Assembly (NCBI GenBank): GCA_965178125.1
Contig: OZ237769.1
Span: 186,001 to 250,000, forward strand
Direction: 5' to 3'
Source of the DNA: Bilabrum cf. latius
Taxonomy: Eukaryota
DNA length: 64,000 bases
Each line of letters starts with the position of its first letter. The stretch's first letter is position 1. Made by a program: the position numbers and the translations under genes. Positions 20,854 through 60,382 of the stretch are shown here, piece by piece. The notes beneath the pieces were generated by a model. It saw only the letters and a list, made by a program, of their open reading frames with translations, was not told the origin of the DNA and ran no database searches.

Positions 20854-21016
20854 AGTGCGTTGCTCGGTCTGTCCAGAGAATGGCTGCCACGGTTGGGATT
20901 GTTGCAAAATCAGTGTTTCGGTGTAAGTACAGTGCCATTTACGATAGGCGTGCTCGCCGCCGCTACGCCGCCGCTCTCCTCAGGGAAACAAAACAGAGTT
21001 TCGCAGAATAATTTAC

Positions 21017-24013: not shown

Positions 24014-24276
24014 TGGGCCCTTCCTGGGCTTTCACGGAGCTAAGGCCACTCCATGATCATCAAATGGGAGTAATACGGATATTTCATACTCCTAAAGCGA
24101 CCGCTCATGTATTGTTCATTTACTCGAATGCATGGCCACCTCGTCGAACCCAGTCTGGTGGGCACCATGAATGCCCTCTGTCTTCGGTGCACTGCGTTGC
24201 ATTCGGATTAGATATGTGCTTTGCTATCAAATATCATGTTCGGACTTACCCGACACGCAACTGGTACCAAACCCAT

Positions 24277-26152: not shown

Positions 26153-26915
26153 TTGCTATCCTGCAGATGCCACTAACTCCTCGGGCTCAGACGCATGATT
26201 CCACGAATCAGCGTTTGCACGAGCAAAAATCAATGATGTAGCGAGTAAAGTTGACAGCATAGTGGCAGAATGGGTTCGGTGACGGCAAGTGTAGCAATAG
26301 ACTCCACCCAAGTGAACTGCACGTAACTGACAATCTTAAATCAGAATACCCGAAGTGAGCACTTCGAATGCAGCTCAGGATATTGGAGGTGAAAGTACCA
26401 TAAATTGCAAGTGAAATCGTATAGAGTTCTGAGAACCGAGCCGCTCTCATGGCTGGGTCGACGTGTTGGCACTTGCGTGCTGTGCGACCACAGCCTAGAC
26501 ATTTCGTCGCACCTCCCTCAACACAAGTGCCTTCAATTGAGGTTGACATGATCAAGCGTATTCTCAAACGGGCGTCATTGTTGTCTGCTAGTACCTTTGA
26601 GCGACACTGAAACTTCTGCATGCAGGCAGACATGGTACGATACAGATCGTTCACGCATGCATCAAGCCGTCAGAGGTCCAGGCAAGTTGGAATCGAACGG
26701 CACAGCACACCAAACAAACAACAGCCCCGGGCCGCCACTGGTCGCTTGGTCAGAGTGCATACACCCAGAGCTAGCCCATCGCAGTATGCAGTGCGAGGCG
26801 TCACAAAATGGCCTCTCCAGAATCAGCTTCCACTTACACCACCACCTGCACCTGCACCGTCCACATTTGGCACGACACGTCCCCACTGGCAGATACAACC
26901 CATTATGTACCCCCA

Positions 26916-27209
26916 TTAATCCCCGTCTAGCACATCTCTCTACAACTTCCTCTTCCTCGCCGCTCTCCTCTTCCTCGTCCTCTTATTCGCGCGATGTCTC
27001 CTCTGCACCTCCTCGCCAACCAGCCCCGCGCACTCTTCGTGGCCGTTCTCCACCGCCACATCCACCAGGCCCTGCAGCACACCCACGCTGCACGCCAGCT
27101 TGCCCAGCCTCAGCCGCTTCCCCAGCTCGAGCGGCCTGCCCTTCTCGCAGCATCTGCCCAGCAGGCTGGCATCTCTGTGCGCCTGATGGCCCCGACGACA
27201 GGCCAGCAC
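26916..27209 (-). CDS. Possible small protein (ankyrin-like helix pair plus basic NLS-like tail); start not found
   Basis: LVDVAVENGHEECAGLV...RKRRAARKRKL*RDVLDGD-TAA. No in-frame ATG was found before an upstream TGA. Confidence 0.25.
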
Positions 27210-27428
27210 TGTGCGGGCACGGGGTCTGTTCTCCAGTCGGAGGGTCCAGCGGTCGTATGGAATAAATCCACCAAAGGGCTTGTGCTCATCGTAAAGGGCC
27301 CGGCTTGTCAGCTTGCAGCTTGCTCAGCTGCGCGAGTTGCTGTTAGCACTCGTCACATCAAGTCGCGTCTCTTCCCTGGCCGTCGAATACCTCAGTGCCG
27401 TCACCTTTGAGAACTCGAACGGAAAGCC

Positions 27429-29165
27429 ATGTCTAGCCTTGTAAGTTCGTACTGTGCCATGCAATATGTTGTGCTCTAAGTAACGCGCGTTCACGTTTTG
27501 ATTTAGTGACTGAAACTGCCATGGTAGATGGATTACTGGCTGGGGAATACGAAGATGCAAAGAGCTGTGGGCTGGTTCTGTAGAGCCCAACCCGAGCATC
27601 GACAACCAAATCTAAATCAAAGCATGATTTATTTATAAATACTGCGCAGAAGCTGTACGCGTTCCAGGGTGACTTCCACGCGCTCAAGTGCCGGATCGCG
27701 GCCCAGTACAATGGCATCGCCGTGGACATGCCCAAGTTCGACCGCTCCAAGGACGCCACCGCCAAGTGGTTCCTTGAGAAGAACCCCCTGGGAAAGACCC
27801 CGCTCCTCGACACCCCCGACGGTAAGATGAAAGCCACCGGAACTCGCACCGAGAAAAGTCGCGCGCGCTCGGTTCTCAGCACCAAACGGGCGCAGTGAAT
27901 CCCGATGCGTGCATCTGTACCCATACCAGCACTTTCTTTCTTTTCTTTACGTCACATACCATAATGTCGCAGGGGCTGTGTTCGAGTCGAACGCCATCGC
28001 TCGGTACATCGCGCGCATGCGCAGCGACACTGAGCTCATGGGCCGGTCCTTCTTCGAGCGTGCCCTGGTGGACTCGTGGATGGACTTCGCGCAGCAGGAG
28101 CTGGAGGTGGCCGTCACCCAGTGGATCTACCCCATCCAGGGGTACCTCGAGTACTCTGCCGACGCCGAGGAGCAGGCCGAGGAGGACGTGGCCGAGGCTC
28201 TGTCCGTCCTTAACGCGCACCTCAAGTACCGCACCTTTTTGGTGGGCGACGCCGTCACCCTGGCCGACATCTGCGTCGTGTCTGCCCTCCTGTACCCCAT
28301 GAAGTTCGTGCTCACGGAGAAGGTCCGCGCCGAGTACCCCCACGTGATGCGCTGGTTCCTCACGTGCGTGAACCAGCCCGAGGTGGCCTCGGTGGTGGGC
28401 GACGTGCCCCTGTGCGCCGAGCGCATGTTCGCCCCCGGTGCTTCCGCCAAGGGCGGCAAGGGCAAGGGTAAGGGCAAGGGCGGCAAGGGCAAGGGCGGCG
28501 GCAAGCAGCAGCAGCAGCAGGGCGGCAAGGGCAAGGGCAAGGGTGGCGGGAAGGGAGGCAAGGCCAAGGCCGCTGCCCCCGCCCCGGCCCCGGCCCCAGA
28601 GAAGCCCGTGGACCCCTTCGCGGGCGTGGGCAAGTCTAACCTGAACATGGAGGTGTTCAAGCGCATGGTGGCCAATGCCCCCAACAACCTGATCCGGGCC
28701 AAGGACCCCGAGGACTCCGACGATGAGGACGAGTACAAGCGCGATTACGCCGCGGTGATGCCCAAGTTCTTCGCGGAGATGTACGACCACACCAAGGACT
28801 CGGTGTGGATCATCAAGTACAAGCACCAGCACGAGAACACGGTCGATTTCATGACGTCCAACCTGGTGCGCGGCCTCACGCAGCGCGCCGAGGGCGCCCG
28901 CAAGTACTGCTTCGGCGTGTTCCACATCCTCAAGCAGCCCCAGGGAGACGACAAGTTCATCTTCCCGATCGTGGGCGCCGTCGTGCTCCGCGGCACTTCC
29001 TTCGACCCCTTCCGCGAGGTCTCGGTGGACATCGCCGAGTACGACGTGGAGCGGATCGACCCCGCCGACGAGGCCGCCAAGGCGCGCTTCGTGACCATCT
29101 TCGGCGGCCAGGCCGGGGACCAGGTGGAGGGTCTCGAGTCCATGGACTGCAAGTGGCTCAAGTGA
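27429..29165 (+). CDS. EEF1G: Elongation factor 1B-gamma (GST-like N-terminal domain plus EF1G C-terminal domain)
   Basis: Exons are 27429-27440 (MSSL|GTAAGT), 27650-27821 (KLYAFQG...KNPLGKTPLLDTPDG) and 27973-29165 (AVFESNAIARY, RTFLVGDAVTLADI, YPHVMRWFLTCVNQP, FMTSNLVRG, RKYCFG). Ends in TGA. Confidence 0.95.
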
Positions 29166-29440
29166 GTGCGCGAAGGAGCGTGGCTTCGTGGGAGTGCAAT
29201 TTTCGTGGAAGCGCCGGCGGGTTGATTCGAAGTGCTCTGCTTTGATGGGCCCCACCGCGTGCTTGCCTTTTGCTTGATCACATACGCTGGTCAAATAGAA
29301 TCATACAGTGCGGATCTTCACAAGCTTGAAACACGATGTGAAAGCCTTTGTTAACATCCACAGAAGCAGCGCAGCTCACGCTACTACTGCAGCATCCCGG
29401 TGTGAACAAAGTAGTTTTGATCACAGCAAAATGAACTGTT

Positions 29441-31351
29441 TTAAGACCCCTTGAATCCCTTGCCAGGCACAAACGCGGGCGCATCCACGGAAAGCTTGAA
29501 ACCGCTGCTCGCGCCTTTCGCCCGCGCAGCCGCTCCCCCCGTGTGCGCCTGCGACGCGCCCCCGCCTGCCAGTGCTCCCGCGCGCGCAGCCGCACCCCCG
29601 GTTGTGCCCTAGGCCCGGGCTGCAGCGCCACCAGTGTGGGCCGCAGCCACAGGGGCAGGGGCATCAGAAGCAGAGGCAGAGGCATACGAAGCAGAGGCCG
29701 CGGGACCTGCACCTGCACCGGCAGCAGGCGCAGGAGCCGGGGCAGAGGCCCCCGCCGCTGCCCTCCCACTCCCGCTCGTCACACCCTTGATCCCCCGACC
29801 CCGATCGGCTCCGAGTCCGAGTCCAGGCAGGCCCAGTGCCGCAGCAGGGAGGGAGGCGTGCCTGCCCAGTGCGAAGGAGGAGGCCCCCTCCAGCCCTGGG
29901 CCAGACCCAGCCACCGCCTCGGTCCGGTAGAATCCATCCGGGGCGAAGGGACCCCGTCTGCAGAGGCACACCTGTTCCAGGGAACAAGTACCACCCCCAA
30001 GTGGCGCTGCCCCGCCGCCACCCTCGGCGTTGTAGTGGGCAAGCAGCGGACGAGCGTCTACTGGCAGCCGCGCCGCCATGGACCCGAAGTCGCCGCCACT
30101 TTGACCACCCCCCGAGCCCTTCCCCATGCCCCGGCCCCGCCCCGACCGCCGCAGCCGCGTGTTGATCACGGTGGCGTGCAGCTTGGGGCTGAGGCGCCCG
30201 TCGGACCCCCGCAGCCGCTGCCTCTCTGCCTCGTCCTCCTCCACCACACCGGCCTCGTGCAGAGCCTCGTACAGCACAGAAAATGCCTCGCGCACCGCCC
30301 CCGTGCCGCCGCCCACGGAGCTCGAGCTGGTACTGGCCCCACCTCGAGCCTGCTGGCCACCCGACTGCCCGGTGCGACTTTGACCGCCCCCCGAAGTGGG
30401 GGGCAGCTGGTCGCTCGCCTTGAGGTACAGCACGTGCGTCTCGGACGGGTCGTCGTTCATGTGTTCGAGCCCCTGCAGCCTGACCCTATGCGATCGGAGC
30501 AGATGCCTCACTCGTTCTGCGACCGATCGGATTGCTCCGATCGCGGCTCTCAGTGCCTCAGGAGTGTAGATCCTCAGCATGAGCAGCGTCATGTGCAGCT
30601 GCCGAGGCGACACGAGCACGCTCTCCTCCAGCCCCTTTGCCGGCGCCCCAGATCCGGGGCCGAAGCGGGACAGCACGTCTGCTTGGAATTTCGCCACGCT
30701 CGGCGCTGCGGCACGCAGCGGGATGCACAGAAAGTGCGTGTAGTCGAGCCGGCTCGCCGTGTCGGCGGCGATGACCTCCAGCATCGTCTTGGCGCGCCGC
30801 ACTGCGGAACCGGTAGAGCCGCGCACAACCACTGAGAGGTCTCCCACGGCACCGCCGGAGCCCCCGTGCCCCCCATGGCGCCGTTTGGAGGCAACGTCCA
30901 GCAGGACAGCCGAGCCGAGCGATGGCTGGTGCCGCCGTCCGGCCCCTTTGCCGAGCCGAATCCCGATGGCTGCATCGATGACGCGATTGCTTGGAATCTT
31001 GATTTGTGTACGCGTATCCCGTTCGATTTCTTGCTTGCTTGCACCGCGCTTGCCCACGAGAAACTTGAACTGCTCCGGGGGAATGTGCACGCGAGAAATC
31101 CACTTGTCAGACCGGGAGCCTGCTCTCCCTTCCGGGACGATACCTTCAGCCTCCAAGTCTTCGATATCATCTTCCACGTCGCCGGACCCGACAGCTTCCC
31201 TATCGCTGCGCGATGCCCCCCACATTCCCGCCTCGTGAGAGTGCTCGGCACGGTCGGCCGACCTCGCAGCTGCAGCCAGCGGCAATTCGCCCTCCGCAAG
31301 GTGAGCCCTGCGCTTCCTGTATCGAATTCCCCCAACGTCAATCACGAGCAT
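29441..31351 (-). CDS. ASCC1: ASCC1-like protein (KH domain plus 2H-phosphoesterase/AKAP7-like domain) with a C-terminal PAM2-like motif
   Basis: KH domain: FKFLVGKRGASKQEIERDTRTQIKIP. Also YTHFLCIPL and the HxT motifs LHMTLLML and KLHATVINT. The frame reads through TAG 29609 to KLSVDAPAFVPG and ends at TAA 29441. Confidence 0.88.
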
Positions 31352-31557
31352 CTCGACGTAAACTAGTCTTGCGTCGCAATTGCGCGAATCCGATCGGACC
31401 GGAACGCTTCATCACTTACTGAAAATGGAACGTTCCAATCGGTTCGTTGCCGTACAATCAGCGAACTTTCCGGGACAGCTCGTCAATCCGTGCGGGGAAG
31501 GCACCCTAAATCATTCATATATCAAGACTACAAACTAGCACGAGCTAGTCTACAAGC

Positions 31558-32281
31558 ATGAAAGGGATTCAATCGGCCATTGCTACTTTGATCCCATTCG
31601 TACTAGCCTATGCTGCCTCAGACGACGTAGGCATGAAGCTTGCTAGCGACAGCTTGATGGAGCCGACCATCGATGAGCCATTTACTGGGGATGATGACGG
31701 CGCTGGCGTTGATTGCCCCCCGCAGTCTTTGCTAGATATAATTGTATAGAATGGAAGGGTGGATTGTGGGCCCAAGTGCGTGTACAAGCACTACGACGCA
31801 GAGGTGAAGGTGCAGCCGCTCCCGGCCGGCATCAGCTGGCAAGCGCTGTGGAAAGGGGCCGGCTTCACCCCGGCACTGTCGTTCGCATTGATCAACCATG
31901 GGACCTGCAGCGGCGTGTACAAGACCCCGCAAGGCCAGTGGAACCTGAAGCTCGACAAGCGGAGGACCGTTCGAACCGGGCCAATCGACAAGAGCCACAA
32001 CGGGACCGGGGGCATGCTCGTCACACAGTGCCCGTGGTGTGACCCCACGGGACCGACCGACTGCAGCCAGTGCGGGAACGTTCCCACCGCCAGCTTCGGG
32101 GAGGCCCACGTGTGGCAGATCAACGCCGAGAACACCGCGTACCTCGCCGAGCTGGAGCCGTCCTCCAGCAGGGGGGTGCTCTGCGTGGACCTTGGGGCGA
32201 TCGAGGACCACGGGCGAGAGATGGAGAGGGTGCGAGAGCTGGCGAGGGAGCGGGGCCTGGTGCTGGGCAGGGATGGCCGTG

Positions 32282-32319
<38 letters not shown>

Positions 32320-32640
32320 CGGTTGAGGGGAGATCGTGGGGATGGTGGTGCGAGCCAGCCTATGCTTCTGGTGGGGGATGAAGGGGAAATCGGGGAACGT
32401 GGCTATTCTGGAGATGACATGGTGCTGCGCGGTTTCAGGGTCATGGGTGCGGACCTCTGCACGGGTGGGAAGGCCTGGACCTACTCGTTCGCGGGAGCGC
32501 AGGTGTACACCACGGGGGGGTGCTCAAGGGATGGAGCCAAGTGTCCCGCGGGGCAGGCCTTTTGCTGCCCCGATGGAAGCAAGCCCGGCAACGTGACTAG
32601 CTGCGGTGACTATTGCTTTGATTGCAACGGGTCTTGCTGA
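31558..32640 (+). CDS. Secreted Cys-rich protein of unknown function with an internal polyQ
   Basis: Signal peptide MKGIQSAIATLIPFVLAYA. Three ORF-track fragments share one frame, joined by TAGs at 31747 and 32317; the second directly follows a (CAG)n run. Cys-rich C-terminus, TGA at 32638-32640. Confidence 0.8.
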
Positions 32641-32932
32641 AGCTGAAGCGGTTCAACGAGGTTCGAGAGCACTCCACCGTCGAGGTTTCGGAGCTTTCGA
32701 TGTTGATGGCACGCTCAGCCCGGAGCAAAACTCAAAATGGATATTTCTCGTCTCCGTGTATGCAATCATAAAGTGATGCAATCGGTCGAATCAAGCGAGC
32801 GAGGCGTCACGATCCAGAACGAACGAATTTCGAAGAAGACGGTCAAACTTGGTTCCAGGAACGGAACCGCCGGGCTCTGGGCCAAGCATAATCTTTGGAA
32901 ATCAACGAAAAGGGTATTCTTAGTACGGTACA

Positions 32933-33301
32933 ATGGTTAATGCTGGTATTGCAGTTGGCCTACATGCCCTTGTAGCCGCAGCATCCCTTGGCGTCCTGGC
33001 ATTTGGGCAAAGATTCTCCATGCAACCAGTTTTCGTGGCGATCGCCTTGAACGTAGCCTGCGCGGTAGTACTGGCTACCTTTTACCTGGTTCCTGCTCCA
33101 CAGCACAGTTCTGTCGGAGGGGGGCTGAATATGGACTATGACGGGCCTAGCGTGATCCAGCTGTCAGATGATTAGGATATTGCTGTTTGCGTTAGCAAGC
33201 AAGGCGAGACTGCCAACGGTTTTAAGTTTGGAAGCGGTGTTACTGTCCCTAATGTTGGACGTTGGTAGTTTTACCCAACAAAGATCGTGAAGGTTGAATG
33301 A
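32933..33301 (+). CDS. Small membrane protein (two N-terminal hydrophobic segments), unknown function
   Basis: MVNAGIAVGLHALVAAASLGVLAF...VFVAIALNVACAVVLATFYLV. Reads through TAGs at 33173 and 33266 to TGA at 33299-33301. Confidence 0.55.
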
Positions 33302-33429
33302 ATGGAAATGCCACAAAAGACTGCCAGTGTTACAGATCGCACGCACGATGCAGAGCCTAATAAGCATTGCTGACTTGATGAAGCTGCAAGAATAAACAGT
33401 GTTGTGCATACGCACGAGGTGATACCGAG

Positions 33430-36393
33430 TCATGCTACCCGCCGCCGTTTGCTCGACCTGCTCGCTCTGCGACGACCGCCCGCACCAGCGGCACCAGCCG
33501 CAGTTGTGGCAGAGCCCTCGTGACGCTGCTGATGCTGATGATGCTGGTGGTGCTGCTGGTGTTTCTCTGGCGCCCCCTCCCTCGCGCCTGCTCTACTCCT
33601 GGATCGGCGGCGCCCTATGGTGCGTGATTCACCTGCCTGCTGGCCAGGTCTGCTTGACGTGGTTCCACCAGAACCAGGGAGGATGGAGTTCCTTCCTCGT
33701 GCACCATGATTCGCATCACGGTGGTGCATGGGTGAGCGGGCAACTGCGCTACTACTGCTGTTGCCATCTCCCCCGTCAGCACCACCATCCAATGCATCAC
33801 CATGGTGCATGGGTGAGCGGGCAACTGCGCTACTGCTGCTGTTGCCATGCCCACCATCACCAGGAACTTCATGGCCCGCACCACCAACACGCTCACTCAG
33901 AGCGGTCCATGGAGATTCACCCCTCCCGTCCATGCCGCGGGTCACGCCCGCCTTGCCATTCGCTGCGTGCACGGGTGCTTCGGCTGCATCGGGCGCGACT
34001 CCCCCGACGGCCCACACGCTCCGCTGAAACCGATGCTGAGACCCCCTACCCCCACTCCCCCTCCCCCTTACTCCATTGCCTCGACCCCTATTTCGATTCC
34101 GGGTTCGTCCCCGACCCCGATGTGGGGTCGTACTAACGCCCATCCGCATCGCAGCAGACATAGACAGTGGCATGGATGAAGGCGGAAGCATGCGCGTTTC
34201 CCGCCGCAGCTGCAGCCGTGCAGACGTGGACTAGTCCTGGTTGACCTGCCGCAGCTGCCTAGGAGACGAACCGTCGCTGTGGACCCCCCCCTCATCGCTG
34301 CTAGTACTGGGCGGAGCGATACTACCATCAGAGTGGATCGCACCGCCGTGCAATGCATCTACCCCCGGGGGAAACAAGGGCATGTCCTCATGCGCGGCCA
34401 TCTGCACCAATGCAGCTGGGTGCGACCCAGACCCAGACCCAGACCCAGACCCAGACCCAGACCCAGACCCAGACCCAGACCCAGACCCAGACCCAGACCC
34501 AGACCCAGACCCAGACCCAGGCATAGGCACAGGCCTTTCCCTGCCGATCGGTCCAGTGTTTCCTCCATGTGCACTGCTACTGCTGCTGCTACTGCTGCCT
34601 TGGTGTCTGACGGTTCCTCCGAACCCAACCCCTCCTTCTCCGCTCATGCCGGCACTCGACGCACTAATCCCGTGGTGCCAGACCGCCCAATGGCCTGGGA
34701 CTGCAACCGGAACAGTCTCTCTCCATCCACTGCCTCTGCTGCTGCTGTTGCTACTAGCAAGTGCGGTTGAGGCACCCGGGCCGCCTGAAATGCTTGGAGC
34801 ACTTGTGGCGCGCGGCCTGGGGGGCGGATCCAACGCCCGGTGCGTGTGCACGCCGTTAGCAGCGGATGGCGACGGTGAGTGCTGCTGCATCATCCTCGTG
34901 GGGGAGGGGAGTGCGGGAGCGAGGCCCAATCCACGGGTGGACTGCAATCCACTGGCGGAGGATGACGGCGTCGGGTGGTCCGCAGCTGCAGCACGGGGGA
35001 GTCCCGAGAGTGTCCCCGAGCTGCCTGAAGATGCATTGCTGCAGCTTGATTCTGTGCCTGGGCTGTAGCGAGCTGCATGCGCGGGCGCTACCATGATGCC
35101 GCTGGCCCTGCCTCTGCTGCGGCCGTCCTCTCGGTCCTGGGACTGGACGACCCAAGCCGCACCATCCATCTCATCGGGCAAGTGCCAGTATGCTCGCGGC
35201 GAGGTGTGCGGTGTGCTGCCACCACCGCCGGAGCCACTACTAGCACTGCCATTGCCCCGATCGCTTCCATTGCCCCGATCGCCTCCATTGCCCCGATGGC
35301 CTCGATCGATCGCTGTACTTTCACCCGTCTGCTCGGCTTGAGGCATCAATTGCCCCTGCATCTCAGGGATCTGACCTGCCTGACTGGCACTGCCACTACC
35401 TTTACGAACAATACTGGGGATGGAATCAACGGCATCTGGAATCGGTCGGCTACCAGTGCCAGTGCCCTGTGCGGCAGATGGGCCCAATTCGTCTTCATGA
35501 CCAGAAGCGCTTGCGACAGCGCTCGTATCAGGAATCGAGCCAATTTCCTGCCACAATGGCACAGGTGTCGGACAGTTAGCGCTAGCAAAAGCTGTTGCCG
35601 CGCCCATATCTCTTTCTCCTGATCTCAGGGCTGCTCCGTGGCTGGCCGTTGCGTCCGCCAAACCCAGCTGATAGCCGAGCCAAGCCGCCTGCAGCGGCAT
35701 GATTCCCTGTACGCTCGATCCGAGCTTGTCTCGCTCAAATCTAAAGAGTGCCCTTGCATCTGGAAACCGTAGAAGCGTTCGCGAGCCAGCATTAGGAGCG
35801 GAACGGGTGTGTCTTGCGCTGGATTCGGGGGCCAAATTTGATCGACCGGTTGCTCTGGCAGACGCAGCTGTGCCATCCAGAGCGCGGCCTCTCGATTGGC
35901 GGTGTCCCACCGAATTTGGAAGTGAATGGGCACCATTGTACAATTCAGCTCGGTCTGCTGATGAGAGGATTGCTGGCATTTCGCTGGGATTGCCCGACAG
36001 AATGGCCTCGCCTATCCATTTCGAGTACTGCGACTGGCTGCTCCCGACACAAAGTGCGATTTCCTCCGAGATTGGAGGAAACCATGGAGCTCGGTTTCGT
36101 TTGCTTCTGACCAGGCTTTTCTAGATGGCAGCCAATCGCTGCTTAATTGAAGTCCGCTTAGCCGCTGGTAGCTGACCTTCTTTAGCATCCTAGCACGCTT
36201 TAATGCTTTCTTGAGCGAGTGCACGTACCTTAGTGACATACTACTATACCAGAGATGGCACGCCTCTCTCAAGGATGGCCTCCATCCACATCTGAACATG
36301 TTGTTTGCGATCCCTTTTTGGCACCCGGGCGCCAACGACGGACTTGGACACGCTGCGCTTCAATTGCTGCCCCTCCTACCTTTTACCGGGCAT
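33430..36393 (-). CDS. Unknown tandem-family protein, paralog A (conserved N-terminal helical domain plus low-complexity region)
   Basis: Open frame of 988 codons with TAG read as sense. GARVPKRDRKQHVQMWMEA...YVTKVRALAQESI...LAAI*KSLVRSKRNRAPWFPPISEEI...KWIGEAILSGNPSEMPAIL is shared with paralogs B-F. Ends in TGA. Confidence 0.7.
34424..34520. repeat. (GACCCA)n hexamer microsatellite encoding (GS)n in paralog A
   Basis: About 16 perfect units are visible. Confidence 0.95.
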
Positions 36394-36905
36394 CTAGCCC
36401 CTACACTGTATTTGTTACGTGGGAAAGGGGTCGCAAGATCGGATGAAACGACGCAGATGTGGACTAGGATCTCATGATTCGGTCGCGTTTTCCCACCGTC
36501 AAGTTGTGACCAACGCCTGATGACGCGCAACGCTGCGTCGATCCTAACCTTGTGCGGTACAACAAGCACATGCTGACAGCACTTATTAACTATTTATCAG
36601 AGTGGCATTGCGTCAGACTGCATCCCGCCTTGCTATTTGGCTGAAGCACAATAGTTGCAAGCTTAACTGGTCATGTTCTTGCTACCGATAGACGTGTTGC
36701 TCCGATTAACATTCTATTTTGCAATCAACTAGGTGCCTTGATGTGATTCTTTCGACGTTTTTGCTTCTAGAGACGCCAATAGTCCTTTTGCTCGGCGTAT
36801 TTGTAGCCAAGCGAAGTCATGCTTGCAGGGCCAATCAGGTTCAACGAGCTGCTATAGTTGCTTCGTTGGACTACAAATATGATCATAAATCCATATATGC
36901 ATGAT

Positions 36906-39500
36906 TCACCGAACCCGCCGTCGCTTCCCCAATCGTGCTGTATTCCTGCCGGCCACCGAATCATCGCTGCCCTGTCTCTGCTGCCCAATCTCGTCTACGA
37001 ACACTGCCATGCCTGAACTGGCCCTGGACCGGCGACGCCCTAAGCTTCGAGATTCACTGGGCTGCGTGCCCAGTTTACTCGAGGTTGTGCCGCAAGAAGG
37101 CATGGGGCCGGCGCTGACGTCCCCCTCAGCGAGCCGGACCGCCGGTCTATCTCTCTTCGTGCCCCTGCCCCTGCCTCTGCCCCTGCTGCTATCGGGGACG
37201 CCAGCCCTGGACGTGGTCCTTGCAGAGCTTGGGGGAGTCCAGGGCAATAATCTCAACGGCTACTCTACCCTGACTGGATGCAGCCCAGCCATGCTGGGCT
37301 CGCCATTAACGGCCCCCCCTGCCACAGCACCAGACCCTGTCCCTGCCCCTGCCACAGCACCAGACCCTGTCCCTGCCCCTGCCACAGCACCAGACCCTGT
37401 CCCTGCCCCTGCCACAGCACCAGACCCTGTCCCTGCCCCTGCCACAGCACCAGACCCTGTCCCTGCCCCTGCCACAGCACCAGACCCTGTCCCTGCCCCT
37501 GCCCATGCGCCTGTACCTGTGCCTGTGCCTGCCCCGGCACCAGCGCCCGTGCTTGCGCTGCCGCCAGAGGCTGTGCTCGCGGTAGTCTATTCTGCGGCTT
37601 CAGTACCTGTGGCTGTCAGTACCCCACTGCGAATTACTGCCCCGTTCAGTCCCGAAGGGAGCGAGGCTGCCGAGGCGGAGGAAGAGGAAGACGAGGAGGA
37701 GGAGGCAGAATCGGCGGTTGAAGTCCTAGGTCTCCGTCGATGCTGCTCAAAGGCAGGCTGCAAACCTTCGCCCTGGCACCGGTCCTCACCCTCTTCACCC
37801 TCGCTGTCTGCATCCATGACTTCGCTGTCTGCATCCAAGACTTCGCTCCCGCTGCCGCTGGTCATGCCAGATGCCGCACTGCTGCCACCCGAGTCGATCG
37901 CACCACCCTGGAATGCAGCCACACCCGGGGGGAACAGTGGCTGTCGGATGCTGTCAGATGGCAGAGCGTGTGGGATCGATCCGAGAGCGTTCAGGTGCGC
38001 TGTGCCTCTGCCGCTGCGGATGGCCTGGCGACGGCTAGTTTGACTGCTTTCAGCGCTGGACCCACTGTGCGGAACAAATTCGCTGCTGACTGGGAGGCGA
38101 ATCGTCCACTACCCGTGCGCCCGACCTCGCCGCCCACTAGTACTGCTGATGCTGCCTCCCGCTGTGGCGCTTGCATCGATTGCTGCAGATGATGGTGACA
38201 CTAACGGTGCGCTGCGTGCGAGCCCCCCCGCCTGTGGATCGCCATGCTGTGCCACTTGCACCAGTCGAGTGAGACTCCCGGTTCTTGTCCGAGCCTAGGC
38301 GCGAGCCCCTGCTCTTGAACCTGCTCTCCCCGCCACCCTTCTTCTCAGTCTTGATCCCGGGCTCTCTGTCTCTGAATCCGACCCTGCACCTGTCAATGAT
38401 GGCCCCCATCCTGCGCCTCCTCGTCGCCTGCTCCCACTGGCGCCAACTTCAACAATCCTCATATGGATCGCAGAATCCCACCCGGAGCCGCTGGCGCTGT
38501 GACTGGCGCTCGCGTCGACATTGGCACGGGGACCTGCTTTGGAGCTGGCTTTGGAGCTGGCTTTGGAGCTGGCTTTGGAGCTGGCTTTGCCGCTGTCACG
38601 TGCACGTGCACCGGCACCAGCGATTCCACTCCCTCTCCCTCTACCTCTACCTCTACCTCTACCTCTCTCTCTCTCTCTCTCTCTTCCCTTCGTGGTGATG
38701 AAAGCCCCCGCATCCACCATTGCAGCTGCCATCCCCCGCTGGTAACCCAGCCATGCCGCTTGCAGCGGATGTAGACACCTCACATCCACGCCCAGGCTTG
38801 CTCGCTCAAACTGGAGCAAACCAGGCAAGCGCGGGATACCATATTGCGACTGCAACTATAGCCGTATCTGCAACTGCTACTGCTCGTCAGCTGGGTCGTC
38901 AGCTTGAAGTTGACTGCCGGTCGCTGCTGCCCAAATAACGTCAGGGGCACGTGTCCGGCCCCGTGGCTTTGACCCAGATGCTGATGCCCTCCCACGTCGC
39001 CTGTTGGCCCCCTTTCGACCACGTGGTGGCTCATCAGTATCCTCACTGTTATTTTCAGACACTTCCATCACTTTCTCTGACATCAAGATTGCCGGCATTC
39101 CACTGGGATCCCCCTTCAAGATGGCCGCACCCAGCCATTTTGTGAATTGAGATTGACTGCTACCGACTGAAACCGCGATCGCCTCCGACACAGCTGGGAA
39201 CCATGGTTTATTATCGCGTTTGCTCCGGAAAAGGCTCTTTTGGACGGATGCTAGCCTATCCTTTATGGATTTTAGTCGTTCCGTTTGTTGCTGAGAGCTA
39301 CTGCTAGCCCGACAGCAACTGATGCTCTCCTCCGCAAGCGCTCGCACCTTGCTGATGTATGCTTTCACTACTGTTCGTACCCCTAACCGAAGCATGGCCT
39401 CCATCCACATCTGAACATGCCGTATGCGATCGTCTTTGGGCACCCGGGCGCCCCTGACGGCCTTCGTCTTCTTGCGCTTTACTGGCTGACTTTTCTGCAT
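36906..39500 (-). CDS. Unknown tandem-family protein, paralog B
   Basis: An 865-codon frame joins five ORF-track pieces through TAGs. It shares HVQMWMEA, KPWFP, SQFTKWLG.AIL.GDP, PLQAAWLGYQ.G and PLFPPGV with paralog A. Ends in TGA at 36906. Confidence 0.72.
37318..37503. repeat. 30-bp tandem repeat x6 encoding AGAGTGSGAV in paralog B
   Basis: CCTGCCACAGCACCAGACCCTGTCCCTGCC repeated perfectly. Confidence 0.95.
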
Positions 39501-39900
39501 ACTTAGCGAGCAAAGACTTTGTCAACTACTATACGCTAGCTGATGTAGATGAAAAAAGAGTCGATTTCTTCTGAGTATTCGAGTGATAACAGGACAAAGC
39601 TTCCAGCTTTGCCCACACAAGAGTGGCAGTTCCGGCATTCAAGTTGCGGCTGGCGCGATTGCCCAGGCGTCCAAAACCGGCCCACGCCCTCTAATACTCC
39701 AATTAATCCCACGACGCTTGCAGAGGCCGTACATTTGCTAAGAAACGGTGAGATGCCCTCCAAGAGTGTACGTTGTTCTACTCCTGTTTGCAGGAATCGA
39801 GGGGTGTCACACGTGGGCAGCCGGAGCAGCTGGGGTCCGATTCGAACGCAACGTTCAAAAATCATTCAAGCAGAAAGAAGAAAAGGAGAAACAATTCATG

Positions 39901-40696
39901 TTAGGTACCGCCGTCCCTTCTCCGCTGCTTCCTTGGCCTCTCATCCTCCCCACTCCCATCACAACCCCTCTCTTTATCCCGACCCCCAGCCTAGCGGCTG
40001 CGCACTCGGCCCAGACCCGTCTCACTCCCTGCTGTCCCCCCGACATCCAGACGCCCCGGGATCATGGCAGCTCCCTATCCTTGCCCAACTCCCTGTGCAC
40101 CACTCCATGCCTGCCCCACTTCGGCTGACTGCCCCCACCCGCGGTCGGCATCATCGCCCTGGCCTACCCCTGCCCCATCGTGCATGATTGCATTAGATGA
40201 AGCAGCACCTGCTGACTGCCCCCACCCGCGGTCGGCATCATCGCCATGGCCTACACCTGCCGCATCGTGCATGATTGCATCAGATGAAGCAGCACCGGCT
40301 GACTGGCCCCACCCGCGGTCGGCATCATTGCACTGGCCTACCCCTGCCGCATCGTGCATGATTGCATCAGATGAAGCAGCACCGGCTGACTGGCCCCACC
40401 CGCGGTCGGCATCATCGCACTGGCCTACCCCTGCCGCATCGTGCATGATTGCATCAGATGAAGCAGCACCGGCTGACTGGCCCCACCCGCGGTCGGCATC
40501 ATCGCCATGGCCTACCCCTGCCCCATCGTGCATGATTGCATCAGATGAAGCAGCACCGGCTGACTGCCCCCACCCGCGGTCGGCATCATCGCCATGGCCT
40601 ACCCCTGCCCCATCGTGCTGCTGCTGCTGCTGTGGCTGCTGCTGCTGTGGCTGCTGCTGCTGCTGTGGCTTTGGCTGCTGCTGTGGCTGTGGCTGT

Positions 40697-40750
<54 letters not shown>

Positions 40751-42630
40751 GGCTGCTGCTGCTGTGGCTGCTGCTGCTGTGGCTGCTGCTGCTGTGGCTG
40801 CTGCTGCTGCGGCTGCTGCTGCTGCTGTGGCTTTGGCTGCTGCTGTGGCTGTGGCTGTGGCTGCTGCTGCTCCTGCTCCTGTGGCATCGGGGCACTTTCA
40901 GGCCCAAACTGATTCTCCTACGCTTGACCTGCCACAAGCGCGCCATAAGAGTCAGCAGATCCGACCGAACCAGACTCCCAACAACGCCCCCTCAGCGAGC
41001 CAGGCAGCGACACACCATCTACATCCGTGCCAGACAAAGACCCGAGCTGGCTGCCGGCATCCTCACTCGTCACACTCCTACCACTTTTCATCCTGTAGTC
41101 ATGCATCCGGAGCCATTGCCCAGTCAGCTCCGAGTCCATGCTCCCCGCCACTGACCCGCCATCACGCGCCTCCCCTTCCCGTCCACCGCTTGCCATGGCC
41201 TCCAGCTGTCTGCGCACGACAGTGGTATCGGAGACGCGCAAATGGGCTATGCCGTTGCCAGCCAGGTGGTTCGTCAGGGGTGCAAGGCGTGCTGCTGGCT
41301 GTCGCCTCGATCTGCTCCTGCCCTGCTCCAGCAACTGCTGCTGTGGCTGTGATGCTTGGGGCTAATCGACCCCACCATTGAGCCTTCCGGTCATCGTGCT
41401 CACTGGATCGTGCGACGACTGAAGGCCTCCCGGACCGCCCAGACCCCCTATGCCTAGAGCACTCTCTCCATTTCTTAGGATTCGCCGTGCCATCTGCCCT
41501 ACGCTGTTATCTGAGCCACCACTGCCAACGCTATTTGGAGTGTCTTTACCGCCACCGCCATCCCCACCGTGTACATTTTGGCCGCTCATCTGAAGTGGGT
41601 CTGTGCGGATGCTTGCAGAGGCCAAGGAGGAGGAGACCTAAGGGTTGCGGATGGACGGAGGTAGTACTGCCACACCCGTCCCGAGGGTTGTTCCCTGGCT
41701 TGTTCCCTGGACAGGAAGCTGGATACCACCTTTAGGCTATTGCGCAGCTGCCCTCTGTCGTCCCCTCCTGACCCTGCTGACCCTGCTGAACCGTCCTCCC
41801 TTGCTGGACCCTCCTGACCCTCCTGAATCTCCCTGCTGCCTCATGAGCCTCTGCTCCATCGGAAGCTCCTCCTCCTCCTCGTCCTCGTCCTCCTCATCCT
41901 AGTGCGTATGTCCGTGCGCATCCCCGCCCATGGGAGTCCCTTGGGTGCCCATGGAGCTCCCTCCCACGCTGATCTCACCCTGAGGCTGGCCCGGCTCTTC
42001 GCTCCGCCCCTCCGGCTGCCCCTGTCCCTGCTGCTGCCTCCTCCTTGGGCTCCCCGCGATTAGCACCGTCGCAGCGCCAGCGGCATGGGCAGCAGCCGAG
42101 GGTGCTGTCGCTGCTGCTGCCTGCCCACCCGGCTGAAGACCTGTCTGGATTTCTGCAACAGCTGCCTGCACTTCTCCTGGCGTCGGTCTCAAGATCTCGG
42201 GCATCTGGGATGGATCCCCGGTGAGGATGGCCTAACCCAACCATTTGGTAAATTGGCTCTTGGTTGATTTGATCCTCGCCGTGATCTAAGCAGCTAGTGG
42301 TTCAAACCACGGCTGCTTGTTGATACTGCTCCTGTGTAGAGCCTTCTGCCTGGATGCCAGGTCCCTCTTGGCCGTCTATTGAGCCTCAATTAACTCGGTC
42401 GATCCAGACTAGAATCGTCGAGCCGCTGCGATCATCCTGAGGGAAATCGATTTCAGACTTGTGATGTAGTCTTGTCCTGTACGATTTGCCTCTTCAATGG
42501 TCGAAAGCCACGTTTGCAGGTGACCTGGCCGCACTGGTACAGGAACCCTTGGTCCTATCATGCTGCCGCTGGAACGACCAGAAGCAGGAGCGCCATGATC
42601 GGACGAATCGCCGGGACGTCGGGGATTCAT
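39901..42630 (-). CDS. Unknown tandem-family protein, paralog C (polyQ plus 29-aa repeats)
   Basis: A 910-codon frame from MNPRRPG. HLQTWLSTIEE...LASRQKALHRSSINKQPWFEP...SQFTKWLG*AILTGDPSQMPEIL is homologous to A and B. It ends in TAA at 39901, where copies D-F have TGA. Confidence 0.72.
40124..40616. repeat. 87-bp tandem repeat (~6 units; GQSAGAASSDAIMHDAAGVGHGDDADRGW), adjacent to a CAG/CCA-rich polyQ tract (40616-40880)
   Basis: Unit starts are at 40124, 40211, 40298, 40385, 40472 and 40559. Copy D has 1 unit; copies E and F have 3. Confidence 0.93.
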
Positions 42631-43266
42631 GTTCAAAAGAAGCAACTCGTTTGTCTTAGTGACTATTTATCTGCATGGATGGGCTCGAACGGTAGACTAG
42701 AACATGGATCTGGAACCGGTGGCATAAATTATCATTTCGCCTTTTCAAGCGCTTTTCGGAGTATACTATAGTACTAATATACCAACAAGCTAACCACAAG
42801 ACGTAGAAATGTTGTTCCTAGGGCTGTTGGGGGCGTAGATTCTATTCCATCCATCAGTAATAACAATGCAGAGATCCACTAAGTGCTCGCAACAATGATC
42901 CGATGGTGTCTGAAGATTGAAAAGTATCCCAGAACGACCACTCCTCTCCATGTGGTTCGTAGCACTGCGGGCAATCACGGAAGGGCGGTAGCCTGCCTGC
43001 TAACCATCGGCTGTGTGGAAAATCAGAGTCTGATCTTTGAGCGGGATGTACGGAACATACGTATGAACAGGCTGGGCAACAAGCTGTACTTCGTCTGGGT
43101 GTTTGGTAACCAGCACCTACTAGACCCCGGAGTGATCGCACCTGGCTACTACTATGCCCCAGCTTTGCACAAGGCCGGGTCAGGCACGTACATGTGCGGG
43201 AAGCGCCTATTCTTAGATCTTCTCACAGCGTGAGTCCGCGCCAATTCTTCGTCTATTCTTAGATCT

Positions 43267-47100: not shown

Positions 47101-50100
47101 ACACGGGAGTAATTACAGACTTGCTGGTCGCTATCCCTGAAGCGGAGGAGGAACAGGCAATCCGGCGAGTGGACGAGGCCCCAATCGCAATGGAGCAAGA
47201 TACTGACGCCTCCTTCAGGGCAGCGTACTCACGGATGTTTGGCATGCAACTGCAGCAGCAACGCCTGGTCTGGGACCACTACGTCAAGGAATTTGAGTTC
47301 GTCACAAGCACAGCCCGTGACATTACGTGCCGCGTGCTCGACACAATCCGCTACTTCAAAAGAACGATGGGTACTCCGGCTGACCGAGAGGCTGCAGGGC
47401 AAGCGGTGACGCAGGCTGTGCCCTCCGTCAAGCTGCTCCTGCAAGGATGCTTCACTGCAGCAGTCGATACGGTGGCAGGCCGACAGACGACGAGGACTGC
47501 ACAGGAGGGGCACGCGGAGGTGTCACGAAAGCGCCACCATAGGATCTGGGCGGCACGGACAAGATGGGCTGAGACCTGGGGAGAAGCCCAAGCTAGCCTG
47601 AAGGCCCTCATAGCGGGACCCGCTACTGAGCAAGCACTCTCAGAGGCCAGAGCACACCTAGCAGCGCATCGCCGAGCCAGCCTACGCCTCCAAGAGCGAC
47701 AGAGGGGGCTCGATGGACGGATGCAGGCAACATTCTGGGGTAGCACGGAGGTGAACCAGCAGGCACAGGAGGGGTAGGAGTACTGGAAGATGCTCCTCTC
47801 CAACCTGGACCACGACCGACGAGCTGTCTTCGAGACCACAGAGAGAGGAGCTCGCAGGACGGGCCAAGCATTACGGAACATGCTGGGAACAGCCAGTCCG
47901 AGGGAAGCCCACCGACGGATTACCGATGCGATCTCTCGGGAGGCAACGGTCTGTACCAGGACTGGAGCCGATCACCAACCCAGAAGGAGAGGTACTCATG
48001 GATATCGAGGACGTCCTGGAGGCACACGCACAGCAGCTCTCTCATGCAGGAGGAGATGGAAGTGCGGATGTGGACGGATTCATGACCAGGGTTGCGCCAC
48101 ACATGCCCAGGGCAGCGGCACCACTCAACCTGTACTGCAGGTCGAATGCAGAGGTGGACCAAGCACTGGACAGGATCAAGCACAACAAAGCTGTGGGACC
48201 GGACGGGATCAGGGCTGAACTGCTGATCAAATGCAAGCCCAGCTCCGAGGAGGACGGGCACATGCGGCGAAGCGATGCGCTGCTGTCCCTACTCAGAGCC
48301 ATCTATAATCTCACCCTCTTCTCGGGAATACAGCCCGAGGCCTTCCAAGAGGGGTTCATGAGGCCGGTCTCCAAGCGCAAGCAAGGCACAGGAGTCCCAG
48401 GAGTCGACGAATTCAGGCCAATATGCTGGACATCGGCGCTTTCGAAAGTGGTGAGTACTATCGCAAACCAGAAGGTCATGTGGTACTGCGAAAAGCACGG
48501 ACTCTTTGGACAGGACCAGGCTGGTTTTCGCATCGGAAAAAACTGTCAGCAGGCCTACTCAGCGGTGATGGAATGGATCACTCAACGAGGAGGGGCTGCA
48601 GGTTTCCTGGTGTTCTTTGATATCAAGTGAGCCTTCGACAGCTGCAAGTGGAACGTCATCGAGGCCATCATGACGGAACAAGGATGGGGACGCCAGACGA
48701 TACGCTTCCTGATGGCCCGCATGCAGGTGGCCATCCGCGTCCGAGACCCACACACCAGAAAGGTCTCTACCAGAGTGCAGAAGACGGCGGGCACCCCACA
48801 AGGGGAGATCCTGTCCCCCACTATCTTCCTGGTACTGATGGGGGTCCTATTGGAGACGCTACGGAAAGAGAGGCTCCAACACGGACACCAACAAAGGATC
48901 ATTACCGCCACTGGACGATATGTGGAATGCGGACAAGTCGGGTATGCGGACGACTACGTGGCACTGACATCGCAATGGAACGAGGCAGTGATGGTCATGA
49001 AGCTAGTCAAGAGCCTGTTTGCACTCGCCGGCATGCAGCTGGGAATCAAACCCCTGACCGCACAGGGCCAGGGGACCAAGACAGCGATGATGGCCTTTGG
49101 CTACGCCCGAGACTCAATTCCTGGGGACATGCCAGACGGCGTCGCATGCAGAGCAGCGGATGCGGGAGATGCTGAAGAGTGGACCATCCCACTTGCCTCA
49201 TCTTACCTCTACCTCGGGCTACTCATCTCAACTCAATCGGTGCGAATCAGCCCAGATGAGACAGTCGGGCTCCCGCAGGCTAGAGACATCTGGGTGATCG
49301 ACATGGTACCACACGTGCGCAGGCGGCTTGCTATGGCGTACCGGGCGGCTAGAGACATCACACGAGCGGCGGTTAACGGAAACTGGGCAGTCTCTCTGCA
49401 CGCTCAGCTGCTGCACGCAGGAGCGATCACGAGTGCATTCTACGGAGCAGAGGCAGCGGCATGCGCAACAGGATGGGACTGCCTGTCAGGAGTAGGACAA
49501 GGTACTGGCATCTTCTACGGGTTAAGCTAAACCTAGAAGTCCTCAGGATGCTGGACAAATTCCTGCTGGACATGCGCTGGATGATTGCCAGCGGATCGAC
49601 GCAGGTAAGGCCATTCTCCATGGGAGGCCGATATGTGCCAAGCCTTGCGATGAACACCGAGCTGCTCACTGCAACAGCAGCGGGACGAGTTGCAGTGAGC
49701 CTGCTAGATCTGATCGAGTGCCCCCTGAAAAAGGGCCTTGACGTAGCAGCCAGGTACATGTACCAGGGCCGACACCTGCAGGGACCACCGCTACAGACGG
49801 GCCCCCTCGGGGCCGCCCTGGCACTGGGATACAGAATCAAGATGCCTGGGCGGATTCTACATTCTGACGACGCGAAGGACTGGCTGGGATATCAAGAGAC
49901 TGCGAAAAGAGTCACGAAATGGAGGCGATCTACGTCCGGAGCTTCGGAACGGGCATTCACAAGCCTTAGCCTGGGATGCTCGCACGATCCAGCACTGTCA
50001 GACCAAGACCGGGAGCGCGCCGCGTGCGGAGTGGTGATGTTTAACCGATTTGCAACGAAAGGACGGAATGCTTTTGGACCAGGAGCCATGGTGACTACAG

Positions 50101-52279: not shown

Positions 52280-54394
52280 TCACGTGCCGCCGTCCCTTCT
52301 CCGCTGCTTCCTTGGCCTCTCATCCTCCTCACTCCCATCACCATCCCTCTCTTCATCCTGCTCCCTGTTATTTCGTCTGCGCACTCGGCCCAGATCCGAC
52401 TCACTCCTTACTGAGCCCCCGACATCCAGACGCCCCGGGATCATGGCAGCTCCCTATCCTTGCCCACCTGCCTGTGCCCCCTCCACTGCCTGCCCCACTT
52501 CGGCTGACTGCCCCCACCTGCGGTCGGCATCATCGCCCTGGCCTACCCCTGCCTCATCGTGCATGATTGCATCAGATGAAGTAGCACCTGCACCTGATTC
52601 GCCCGCTGCCCCTGCATGCTGCGGCTGCTACTGCTGCTGCTGCTGCTGCTCCTGTGGCATCGGGGCACTTTCAGGCCCAAACTGATTCTCCTACGCTTGA
52701 CCTGCCACAAGCACGCCATAAGAGTCGGCAGATCCGACCGAACCAGACTCCCAACAACGTCCCCTTAGCGAGCCAGGCAGCGACACACCATCTACATCCG
52801 TGCCAGGCAAAGACTCGCGCTGGCTGCCGGCATCCTCACTCGTCACACTCCTCCCACTTCTCATCCTGTGGTCATGCATCCGGAGCCATTGCCCAGTCAG
52901 CCCAGAGTCCATGCTCCCCGCCACTGACCCGCCATCACGCGCCTCCCCTTCCCGTCCAGCGCTTGCCAAGGCCTCGAGCTGTCTGCGCACGTCGGCGGCA
53001 TCGGAGGCGCGCAATTGGGCTAGGCCGGTGCCAGCCAGATGGTTCGTTAGCGGTGCAAGGCGCGATGCTGGCTTCCGCCTCGGCCTGCTCCTGCCCTGCT
53101 CCAGCAACTGCTGCTGTGGCTGTGATGCTTGGGGCTAATCGACCCCACCATTAAGCCTTCCGGTCATCCTGCTCACTGGATCGTGCGACGACTGAAGGCC
53201 TCCCGGACCGCCCAGACCCCCTATGCCTAGAGCACTCTCTCCATTTCTTAGGATTCGCCGGGCCATGTGCCCCACGCTACTCTCCGACATACCGCTTCCA
53301 ACGCTATTTGGAGTGTCTTTACCGCCATCACCACCCCCACCGTCTACATTTTGGCCGCTCATCTGAAGCGGGTCTGTGCGGATGCCTGCAGAGTCCAAGG
53401 AGGAGACGGCCTGAGGGTTGCGGATGGAAAGGGGGGACACAGCCACACCCGTCCTAAGGGTTGTTCCTCGACTTGTTCCCTGGACAGGAAGCTGATCCCC
53501 ACTTGTAGGCTATTGTGCAGCTGCCCTCCGTCGTACCCTACTGACCCTACTGACCCTACTGACCCTCATGGATCGTCCTGGGCCTGCTCGGCCTCCCTGC
53601 TGCCTCATGAGCCGCTGCTCCATCGGCAGCTCCTCCTCCTCCTCATCCTCCTCCTCCTCATCCTAGTGCGCATGTCCGTGCGCATCCTCGCCCATGGGAG
53701 TCCCTTGGGTGCCCGTGGAGCTCCCGCCCATGCTGATCTCACCCTGTGGCTGGCCCGGCTCTTCGCTCCGCCCCTGCTGCTGCCCCTGCCCCTGCTCCTG
53801 CCTCCTCCGTGGGCTCCCCGCGACTCGCACCGTCGCAGCGCCAGCGGCATGGTCAGCAGCCGAGTGTGCTGTCGCTGCTGCTGCTTGCCCATCCGGCTGA
53901 GAACCTGCCTGCATCGTTGCGACTGCTGCCTCCAATGCTCTGGGCGTCGGTCTCAAGATCTCGGGCATCTGGGATGGATCTCCGGTGAGGATGGCCTCGC
54001 CCAACCATTTGGTAAATTGGCTCTTGGTTGATGAGATCCTCGCCATGATCTAAGCAGCTAGTGGGGCAAACCATGGCTTCTTGTTGATATTGCTCCTGTT
54101 TAGAGCCTTCTGCCTGGATGCCAGGTCCCTCTTGGCCGTCTATTGAGCCTCAATTAACTCGGTCGATCCAGGCTAGAATCGTCGAGCCGCTGCGATCATC
54201 CTGAGGGCAATCGGTTTCAAACTTGTGATGTAATCTTGTCCTGTATGATTCGCACCTTCAATGGTCGAAAGCCACGTTTGCAGGTGACCTGGCCGCTCTG
54301 GTACAGGAACCCTTGGTCCTATCATGCTGCCGCTGGAACGACCAGAAGCAGGAGCGCCATGATCGGGCGAATCGCCAGGACGTCGCGGATTCAT
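52280..54394 (-). CDS. Tandem-family paralog D (C-type)
   Basis: A 705-codon frame colinear with paralog C when TAG is sense. Ends in TGA at 52280. Confidence 0.68.
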
Positions 54395-55932: not shown

Positions 55933-56441
55933 TCACTTCCCGCCATCCCTTCTCCGCTGCTTCCTTGGCCTCTCATCCTCCTCACTCCCATCACCATCCC
56001 TCTCTTTATCCCGACCCCCAGCCTAGCGGCTGCGCACTCGGCCCAGACCCGTCTCACTCCCTGCTGTCCCCCCAACACACAGATCCCCCCGAATCATCGC
56101 AGCTTCCTATCCTTGCCCAACTCCCTGTGCCCCACTCCATGCCTGCCCCACTTCGGCTGACTGCCCCCACCCGCGGTCGGCATCATCGCCCTGGCCTACC
56201 CCTGCCCCATCGTGCATGATTGCATTAGATGAAGCAGCACCTGCTGACTGCCCCCACCCGCGGTCGGCATCATCGCCATGGCCTACACCTGCCGCATCGT
56301 GCATGATTGCATCAGATGAAGCAGCACCGGCTGACTGCCCCCACCCGCGGTCGGCATCATAGCCCTGGCCTACCCTTGCCCCATCGTGCATGATTGCATT
56401 AGATGAAGCAGCACCTGCACCTGATTCATTCATATCATGTG

Positions 56442-56501
<60 letters not shown>

Positions 56502-60343: not shown

Positions 60344-60382
<39 letters not shown>

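Follow-up and report, generated by a model that had tools for sequence, protein, structure and literature searches.

Gene content of the window

The window, by which we mean the whole stretch of 64 kb that was analysed, is eukaryotic nuclear DNA with a GC content of about 60%. Its introns have GT..AG borders and measure 139-209 bases. The following genes and elements were delineated, with the coordinates of the Pfam listing in brackets where these differ.

1-1374, minus strand: RNI-type LRR protein (Pfam)
7163-9070, plus strand (7025-9070): ABCE1 (Pfam)
13596-15368, plus strand: protein kinase (Pfam)
15542-17725, minus strand (15542-18043): PDCD2/TSR4-like gene (Pfam)
18044-19144, minus strand: OTU protease (Pfam)
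21017-24013, plus strand (20927-24013): gene with a PH domain and RCC1 repeats (Pfam)
24277-25977, minus strand: g24277, no Pfam family
27831-29165, plus strand: EF1-gamma (Pfam), with its last exon at 27972-29165
29441-31351, minus strand (29441-31408): ASCC1-like gene with a KH_1 and an AKAP7 2'5' RNA ligase-like domain (Pfam)
about 43.1-50.8 kb: decayed LINE-like element

Neither tRNA genes (ARAGORN) nor Rfam families were found in the 64-kb window. In addition, the window holds a family of lineage-specific paralogs, A to F, together with part of a further copy that is the fifth when counted with C to F. Coordinates of the paralog listing are given in brackets where these differ.

33430-36414, minus strand: paralog A
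36906-39521, minus strand: paralog B
39901-42630, minus strand (39901-42666): paralog C from its first ATG to TAA, 909 codons with 11 in-frame TAG and no TAA
39901-39903, minus strand: stop codon TAA of paralog C, which aligns with the TGA of D, E, F and the fifth copy
52280-54394, minus strand (52280-54430): paralog D, nine in-frame TAG, ending in ...DGGT TGA
55933-58296, minus strand (55933-58332): paralog E, 11 in-frame TAG, ending in ...DGGK TGA
59835-62177, minus strand (59835-62213): paralog F, 11 in-frame TAG, ending in ...DGGK TGA
63716-64000, minus strand: C-terminal part of the fifth tandem copy, cut by the window end, with TGA at 63716-63718

Paralogs D, E and F and the truncated copy form a tandem array on the minus strand (52280-64000) with spacings of 3653, 3902 and 3881 bases. 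No Pfam family was matched by paralogs A to F. Their proteins have a common N-terminal domain, repeats rich in Q, G and S, and a basic ...KQRRRDGG tail.

The LINE-like element contains a reverse transcriptase ORF that is split by an in-frame TGA at 48628-48630 (plus strand), inside ...FFDIK*AFDS..., with Pfam RVT_1 downstream. Because the neighbouring ORFs of the element lie in shifted frames, this TGA seems to reflect the decay of a LINE-like copy and not a sense use of UGA.

Cafeteria roenbergensis supplies the nearest named proteins; its ABCE1 is 62% identical to that of the window. A search with PDCD2 yielded five matches, among which Cafeteria is the sole named one. In a tree of 25 ABCE1 rows, comprising no alveolate, rhizarian, haptophyte or fungal sequences, the window protein and its 88%-identical relative P0005 stand beside Cafeteria with support of 98/94, on long branches and with narrow sampling. 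Sequence similarity thus offers a lead, not a placement, towards a host that may be a Cafeteria-related stramenopile. In the same tree, ABCE1 of the window and of P0005 sits on a long stem branch of 0.8 changes per column, and ABCE1 has a G/A/K-rich insertion that separates its two ATPase halves. To tie this branch or insertion to altered termination would be pure speculation. Scanning metagenome contigs with ABCE1 returned 18 loci, the best segment being 71% identical, and the 88%-identical relative was not among them; a scan of genome contigs returned three bacterial ABC proteins only.

TAG as a sense codon

When TAG is opened, the number of ORFs of at least 500 amino acids rises from 6 with standard stops to 17, and that of ORFs of at least 700 amino acids from 0 to 12. 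We trimmed 21 genes to their first ATG or to a start backed by homology or RNA; these comprise 14,317 codons, 93 of which are in-frame TAG. The use of TAG is uneven. ABCE1 (635 codons, with TGA immediately after ...YFFMEED) and the last exon of EF1-gamma (397 codons, stop TGA at 29163-29165) contain neither TAG nor TAA, while TAG accounts for 11 of the 909 codons of paralog C.

In this window TAG is translated, and it is translated as glutamine, an assignment read from a small sample of conserved TAG columns. The PDCD2 homologs compared, with Cafeteria roenbergensis and a 92%-identical relative among them, have Q in five out of five cases at both 17414-17416 and 17285-17287. A third TAG in PDCD2 (17651-17653) falls in a column with E, E, H and E. 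The PH and RCC1-repeat gene has six in-frame TAG, of which the one at 23297-23299 stands for the Q of the repeat motif G-Q-L-G, as known from the other RCC1 repeats of the protein itself and from solved homologs. Two TAG columns aligned to RCC1 structures in the PDB are variable (E/N/R/K and N/F/Y) and hence uninformative, and a PDB sequence search with PDCD2 gave no matches. Among paralogs C to F, seven TAG columns are common to all four copies. Where the copies are mixed, CAG or CAA is the alternative in eight out of 11 columns, the others having GAG, GAC or AAT. TAG also occurs within polyglutamine runs of CAG and CAA in paralogs E and F and in g43136; the run in paralog E holds three (56500-56502, 56518-56520 and 56536-56538).

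In-frame TAG occurs at distances of 6, 30, 30, 30, 56 and 58 codons upstream of stop codons. Gene ends are thus not free of TAG, and the code does not appear to depend on position. The nearest case lies at 23996-23998 on the plus strand (computed by hand), six codons before the TGA of the RCC1 gene, in ...EEEEE-TAG-EDDDR-TGA. Four consecutive in-frame TAG (5652-5663, minus strand, computed by hand) precede the likely signal-peptide start of g3393, and are probably part of a 5' leader rather than coding.

TAA as a probable stop codon

TAA is absent from coding sequence within the window. Neither TAA nor TGA occurs in frame in the 14,317 codons of the 21 genes. An earlier claim, made in the first-pass annotation, that no in-frame TAA lies inside conserved domains therefore holds over all 21 genes, with 0 TAA against 93 TAG. 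If TAA were used like TAG, the number expected would be 14.0 by the ratio of TTA to TTG, 22.8 by CAA to CAG, 30.6 by AAA to AAG, 34.3 by GAA to GAG and 40.8 by off-frame TAA to TAG, so that the Poisson probability of finding none is at most 8e-7. Leaving out transposon ORFs and the near-identical paralogs E and F, 55 TAG and no TAA remain in 10,523 codons; in this reduced set, CAA and CAG occur 83 and 450 times, from which about 10 TAA are expected (calculated by hand).

The ORF set was itself delimited with TAA as a boundary, and the count of zero is partly built in. Since the ORFs are bounded by TAA and TGA, two checks were run that do not assume TAA to be a stop. With TAA alone opened, the number of ORFs of at least 500 amino acids does not grow (6 versus 6). 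Among the frames of at least 300 codons that are bounded by TGA and contain TAA, none out of 45 scores positive for codon usage both before and after a TAA, and each known gene appears in them as a single positive block between negative pieces. The codon-usage model behind these frames and behind the flank test is weak, with a sensitivity of 53% at 2.3% false positives. With this weak model and a threshold of 2, the flank test scored 58 of 1028 TAG (about 23 expected), five of 482 TAA (about 11 expected) and 25 of 1694 TGA (about 38 expected), figures that agree in direction with the two checks. Going upstream from the ORF, the first stop met in frame is TAA in nine of 19 genes. Over all frames, the density of TAA is 13.6 per kb outside genes compared to 4.6 per kb inside. 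Of the three triplets, TAA is the least frequent, with 236 on the plus and 246 on the minus strand against 474 and 557 for TAG.

Twenty genes are complete, and one runs off the window. Of the complete genes, 18 end in TGA, two in TAA and none in TAG. UGA is hence the usual stop in the window genes and UAA a minor one. As noted before, only two TAA sites lend support, and they are still those of ASCC1 and paralog C. Both of these expressed or conserved frames end at TAA at the point where base composition and paralog similarity change.

In paralog C, the plus strand at 39901-39918 is TTAGGTACCGCCGTCCCT, corresponding on the minus strand to ...AGG GAC GGC GGT ACC TAA. It had been remarked that this TAA stands where D, E and F have TGA. 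The alignment bears this out, as does a pattern of 30 bases (the stop codon and the nine codons before it), which has five matches in the window versus none expected from 100 shuffles, with TAA at 39901 and TGA at 52280, 55933, 59835 and 63716, the last being the added fifth copy. In the DNA alignment, C, D, E and F are near-identical up to the stop column; past it, similarity decays and the indels are not multiples of three. Across this stop the GC content falls from 0.66 to 0.497. The four TGA copies, being tandem duplicates, count for roughly a single independent TAA/TGA difference and not for three or four. Reading through the TAA of paralog C would add 12 codons before TGA at 39862-39864, and the TAA could be a recent mutant of TGA that is tolerated with a 12-codon extension.

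The second site is that of ASCC1, a gene of 636 codons with a single in-frame TAG at 29609-29611.

29441-29443, minus strand: TAA stop of ASCC1, at the end of ...SVDAPAFVPGKGFKGS
29318-29353, minus strand: read-through region of ASCC1, with a second in-frame TAA at 29351-29353 and then TGA at 29318-29320

The GC content is 0.727 in the last 150 coding bases and 0.453 in the 3' flank. Of the ending described earlier for ASCC1, the TAA and the drop in GC content stand; for the C-terminal motif described as PAM2-like, no Pfam PAM2 family is matched by this protein at E <= 0.01. Reading on from the TAA gives 29 codons, the second TAA, 10 codons and the TGA.

Two readings of UAA compete with its role as a stop. 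In the first, UAA would be ambiguous or in transition, being mostly avoided, a weak terminator and occasionally sense by context. Such a state would fit with TAA closing just two of the 20 complete genes, and the second in-frame TAA of ASCC1, 30 codons past the first, could serve as a back-up stop. We consider it improbable given the complete lack of in-frame TAA in the 14,317 codons; the presence of TAG 6 to 58 codons before the stop also speaks against it, with the reservation that this concerns TAG, not TAA. In the second, both UAA and UAG would encode glutamine (UAR=Gln), with UGA as sole stop and TAA scarce merely because of GC-richness. TAA is indeed the rarest triplet and would be rare anyway at 60% GC, TGA terminates 18 of the 20 complete genes, and reading both TAA through adds just 12 and 40 residues before TGA. 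Yet none is found of the 14-41 TAA expected by the A/G third-base ratios of the same genes, no coding segments are joined when TAA is opened, and the extensions lie in sequence of GC 0.45-0.50 with negative codon scores (-9.0, -5.0 and -4.1). This makes the second reading very unlikely.

RNA contigs and the proteins of close relatives

In assembled contigs from three sequencing runs, X6, X7 and X8, two GT..AG introns (25980-26118 and 27821-27971) are spliced out; X6 and X8 also lack the intron at 27441-27649. In EF1-gamma, contigs of X6 and X7 have a tail of non-templated A after 29303. Being spliced and ending in such a tail, the X6 and X7 contigs are RNA-derived. The kinds of the runs were guessed, and X6 is labelled 'RNA? 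(probably DNA)', yet its contigs lack the introns that X7 and X8 also skip, and have the A tail. The TAG of g24277 (about 25933-25935, computed from the place of the residue in the ORF) shows no differences in the contigs that splice 25980-26118. As these spliced contigs keep the TAG unchanged, editing of the g24277 TAG is ruled out. Likewise unchanged in contigs are the TAG (29609-29611) and the TAA (29441-29443) of ASCC1 and several TAG of paralog A. Over 20901-40120 the contig cover is incomplete, with most of paralogs B and C uncovered.

For ASCC1, record 11 of X6 spans 29346-31373 with no differences, and record 18 of X7 spans 29396-30095. The longest of the ASCC1 contigs ends at 29346, short of the TGA at 29318-29320. 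Since contig ends are not transcript ends and the X7 contig stops at 29396, the end at 29346 is a weak hint only. EF1-gamma (plus strand) and ASCC1 (minus strand) are convergent, the poly(A) site of the former lying at 29303 and the contig end of the latter at 29346; the 42 bases in between (29304-29345) are without cover by the listed X6 contigs.

Database proteins of close relatives break off where the window has TAG or Q. P0130, an ASCC1 protein that is 89% identical, ends in ...HTGGAAARA, exactly at the window TAG, and so this one close ASCC1 relative breaks off before the C-terminus. P0005, the ABCE1 protein that is 88% identical, ends in ...NQFL, where the window continues with QQLNITF... 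for 41 more conserved residues. Both were presumably predicted under the standard code. Taken with P0125, these relatives (88-92% identical) have predicted proteins that start or stop exactly at a TAG or Q of the window. Judged from these sequences, the close relatives seem to share the UAG code, and the pattern suggests that public gene calls for the lineage are truncated by use of the standard code.

The notion that the in-frame TAG are not glutamine at all and result from pseudogenes, assembly errors, RNA editing or leaky read-through, without a code change, can draw on the transposon-like or multi-copy nature of some TAG-rich ORFs (g43136, g45291 and paralogs A to F) and on the in-frame TGA of the decayed reverse transcriptase ORF, but is highly implausible in view of TAG at glutamine columns in single-copy conserved genes (PDCD2, RCC1, ASCC1, OTU and kinase), the seven TAG columns kept across all four paralogs C to F, the unaltered TAG in spliced, RNA-derived contigs and the standard-code proteins of close relatives that break off where the window has TAG or Q.

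A probable nuclear code with UAG alone reassigned

On the scale of this window, the evidence makes it very probable that the nuclear code of the organism reads UAG as glutamine and uses both UAA and UGA for termination. This assignment corresponds to NCBI table 15. The decoupling of UAA from UAG that was proposed in the first-pass annotation is upheld by the rise from 6 to 17 ORFs with TAG open, by 0 TAA where 14-41 are expected, and by two genes that end in TAA with a drop in GC content.

Mechanistically, as proposed in the first-pass annotation, a tRNA with anticodon CUA, here a tRNA-Gln, would read UAG, and a tRNA(UUA) would be lacking. Such a tRNA would be a single base away from tRNA-Gln(CUG) and would be unable to pair with UAA. 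In line with this, an anticodon CUA is described to read UAG and not UAA, and an anticodon UUA to read both (PMC5304391, PMC11687900, available text). At the same time, eRF1, the single release factor of eukaryotes, would have lost or weakened its recognition of UAG while keeping that of UAA and UGA.

Comparison with known codes

According to the available text of two papers, it is rare for one of UAA and UAG to change its meaning without the other (PMC5304391, PMC11687900). The precedents named earlier for a change of UAG only, Iotanema and a rhizarian, stand, but form too short a list, to which three ciliates and Scotinosphaera have to be added (PMC11687900, in the part available). UAG alone is reassigned to glutamine, with UAA as a stop, in Protocruzia tuzeti, Hartmannula sinica and Trochilia petrani, and to serine in Scotinosphaera (available text of PMC11687900). 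Reassignment to leucine is recorded for the rhizarian exLh and for TARA phyllopharyngean ciliates (PMC5304391, PMC11687900, as far as available). Amoeboaphelidium, a candidate source of the window that was set aside because sequence similarity points to Cafeteria, is listed as UAR=Gln in the accessible part of PMC11687900.

The closest counterpart in codon assignment is the fornicate Iotanema spirale, in which, as in the window, UAG alone has become glutamine and UAA and UGA terminate, with a predicted tRNA-Gln(CUA) as the decoder of UAG (PMC5304391, available text). It differs in belonging to an unrelated lineage and in having UAA as the dominant stop, in both taxa studied (PMC5304391, same text), compared to TGA in 18 out of 20 genes here. 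A T32G change in the GTS motif of eRF1 is described, in the text available, as a feature of Iotanema.

Hartmannula, Trochilia and Protocruzia equally resemble the window in reading UAG alone as glutamine and in keeping UAA as a stop (PMC11687900, available text). However, these are ciliates, and UAA is 'the preferred stop codon' there (PMC11687900, available text), whereas the window prefers TGA. The window further differs from UAG-only ciliates by its GC content of 60%, its spliceosomal GT..AG introns and Cafeteria as the nearest named relative.

In exLh, the TARA ciliates and Scotinosphaera, UAG and UAA are decoupled as well, but the available descriptions give a different amino acid, namely leucine or serine instead of glutamine. 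UAG is scarce in the ribosomal-protein genes of exLh (PMC5304391, available text); the window has none in ABCE1 or the last exon of EF1-gamma, and UAG makes up about 1.2% of the paralog codons.

The UAR=Gln codes (many ciliates, hexamitids, ulvophytes, oxymonads and an aphelid) share TAG as glutamine and the interchange of TAG with CAG. They use TAA as glutamine too, while TAA is absent from coding sequence in the window and ends two genes. Of their hallmark, both UAA and UAG in frame at glutamine positions, the window genes show the TAG part, and no TAA.

Like the window, the context-dependent codes of Condylostoma, karyorelicts and Blastocrithidia have a standard stop inside genes. Unlike in those codes, there is no sign of TAG terminating in the 64 kb, and conserved C-termini run into TGA. 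In PDCD2, for example, the C-terminus ...ALQVTK passes straight into TGA, and that of the relative ends in ...ALQVTR.

The literature searched, with subscription journals and supplements lying outside of it, does not report any stramenopile or bicosoecid with a reassigned nuclear UAG, and no code change is recorded in it for Cafeteria. PMC10888605 had surfaced as a candidate report of UAG reassignment and was rejected, as it was gene names of the form 'UaG...' that had matched.

Significance

A code in which UAG alone means glutamine is already known from Iotanema and some ciliates, and what differs here is the lineage, the GC content and the stop preference. We see about an even chance that this code arose independently, in an event not reported before, in a GC-rich Cafeteria-related (stramenopile) lineage in which UGA dominates termination and UAA is rare. 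In practical terms, gene prediction with the standard code truncates the proteins of this organism, and a UAR=Gln table would wrongly run through its TAA stops.

Each lineage that splits UAA from UAG demonstrates that release factor and tRNA pool are able to tell the two codons apart (PMC5304391, PMC11687900, available text). A further case would be an independent data point for comparisons of eRF1 sequences. If the reading is true, this lineage, for which DNA and RNA sequencing runs already exist, would lend itself to studying how UAG and UAA are told apart by eRF1 where UAA is little used.
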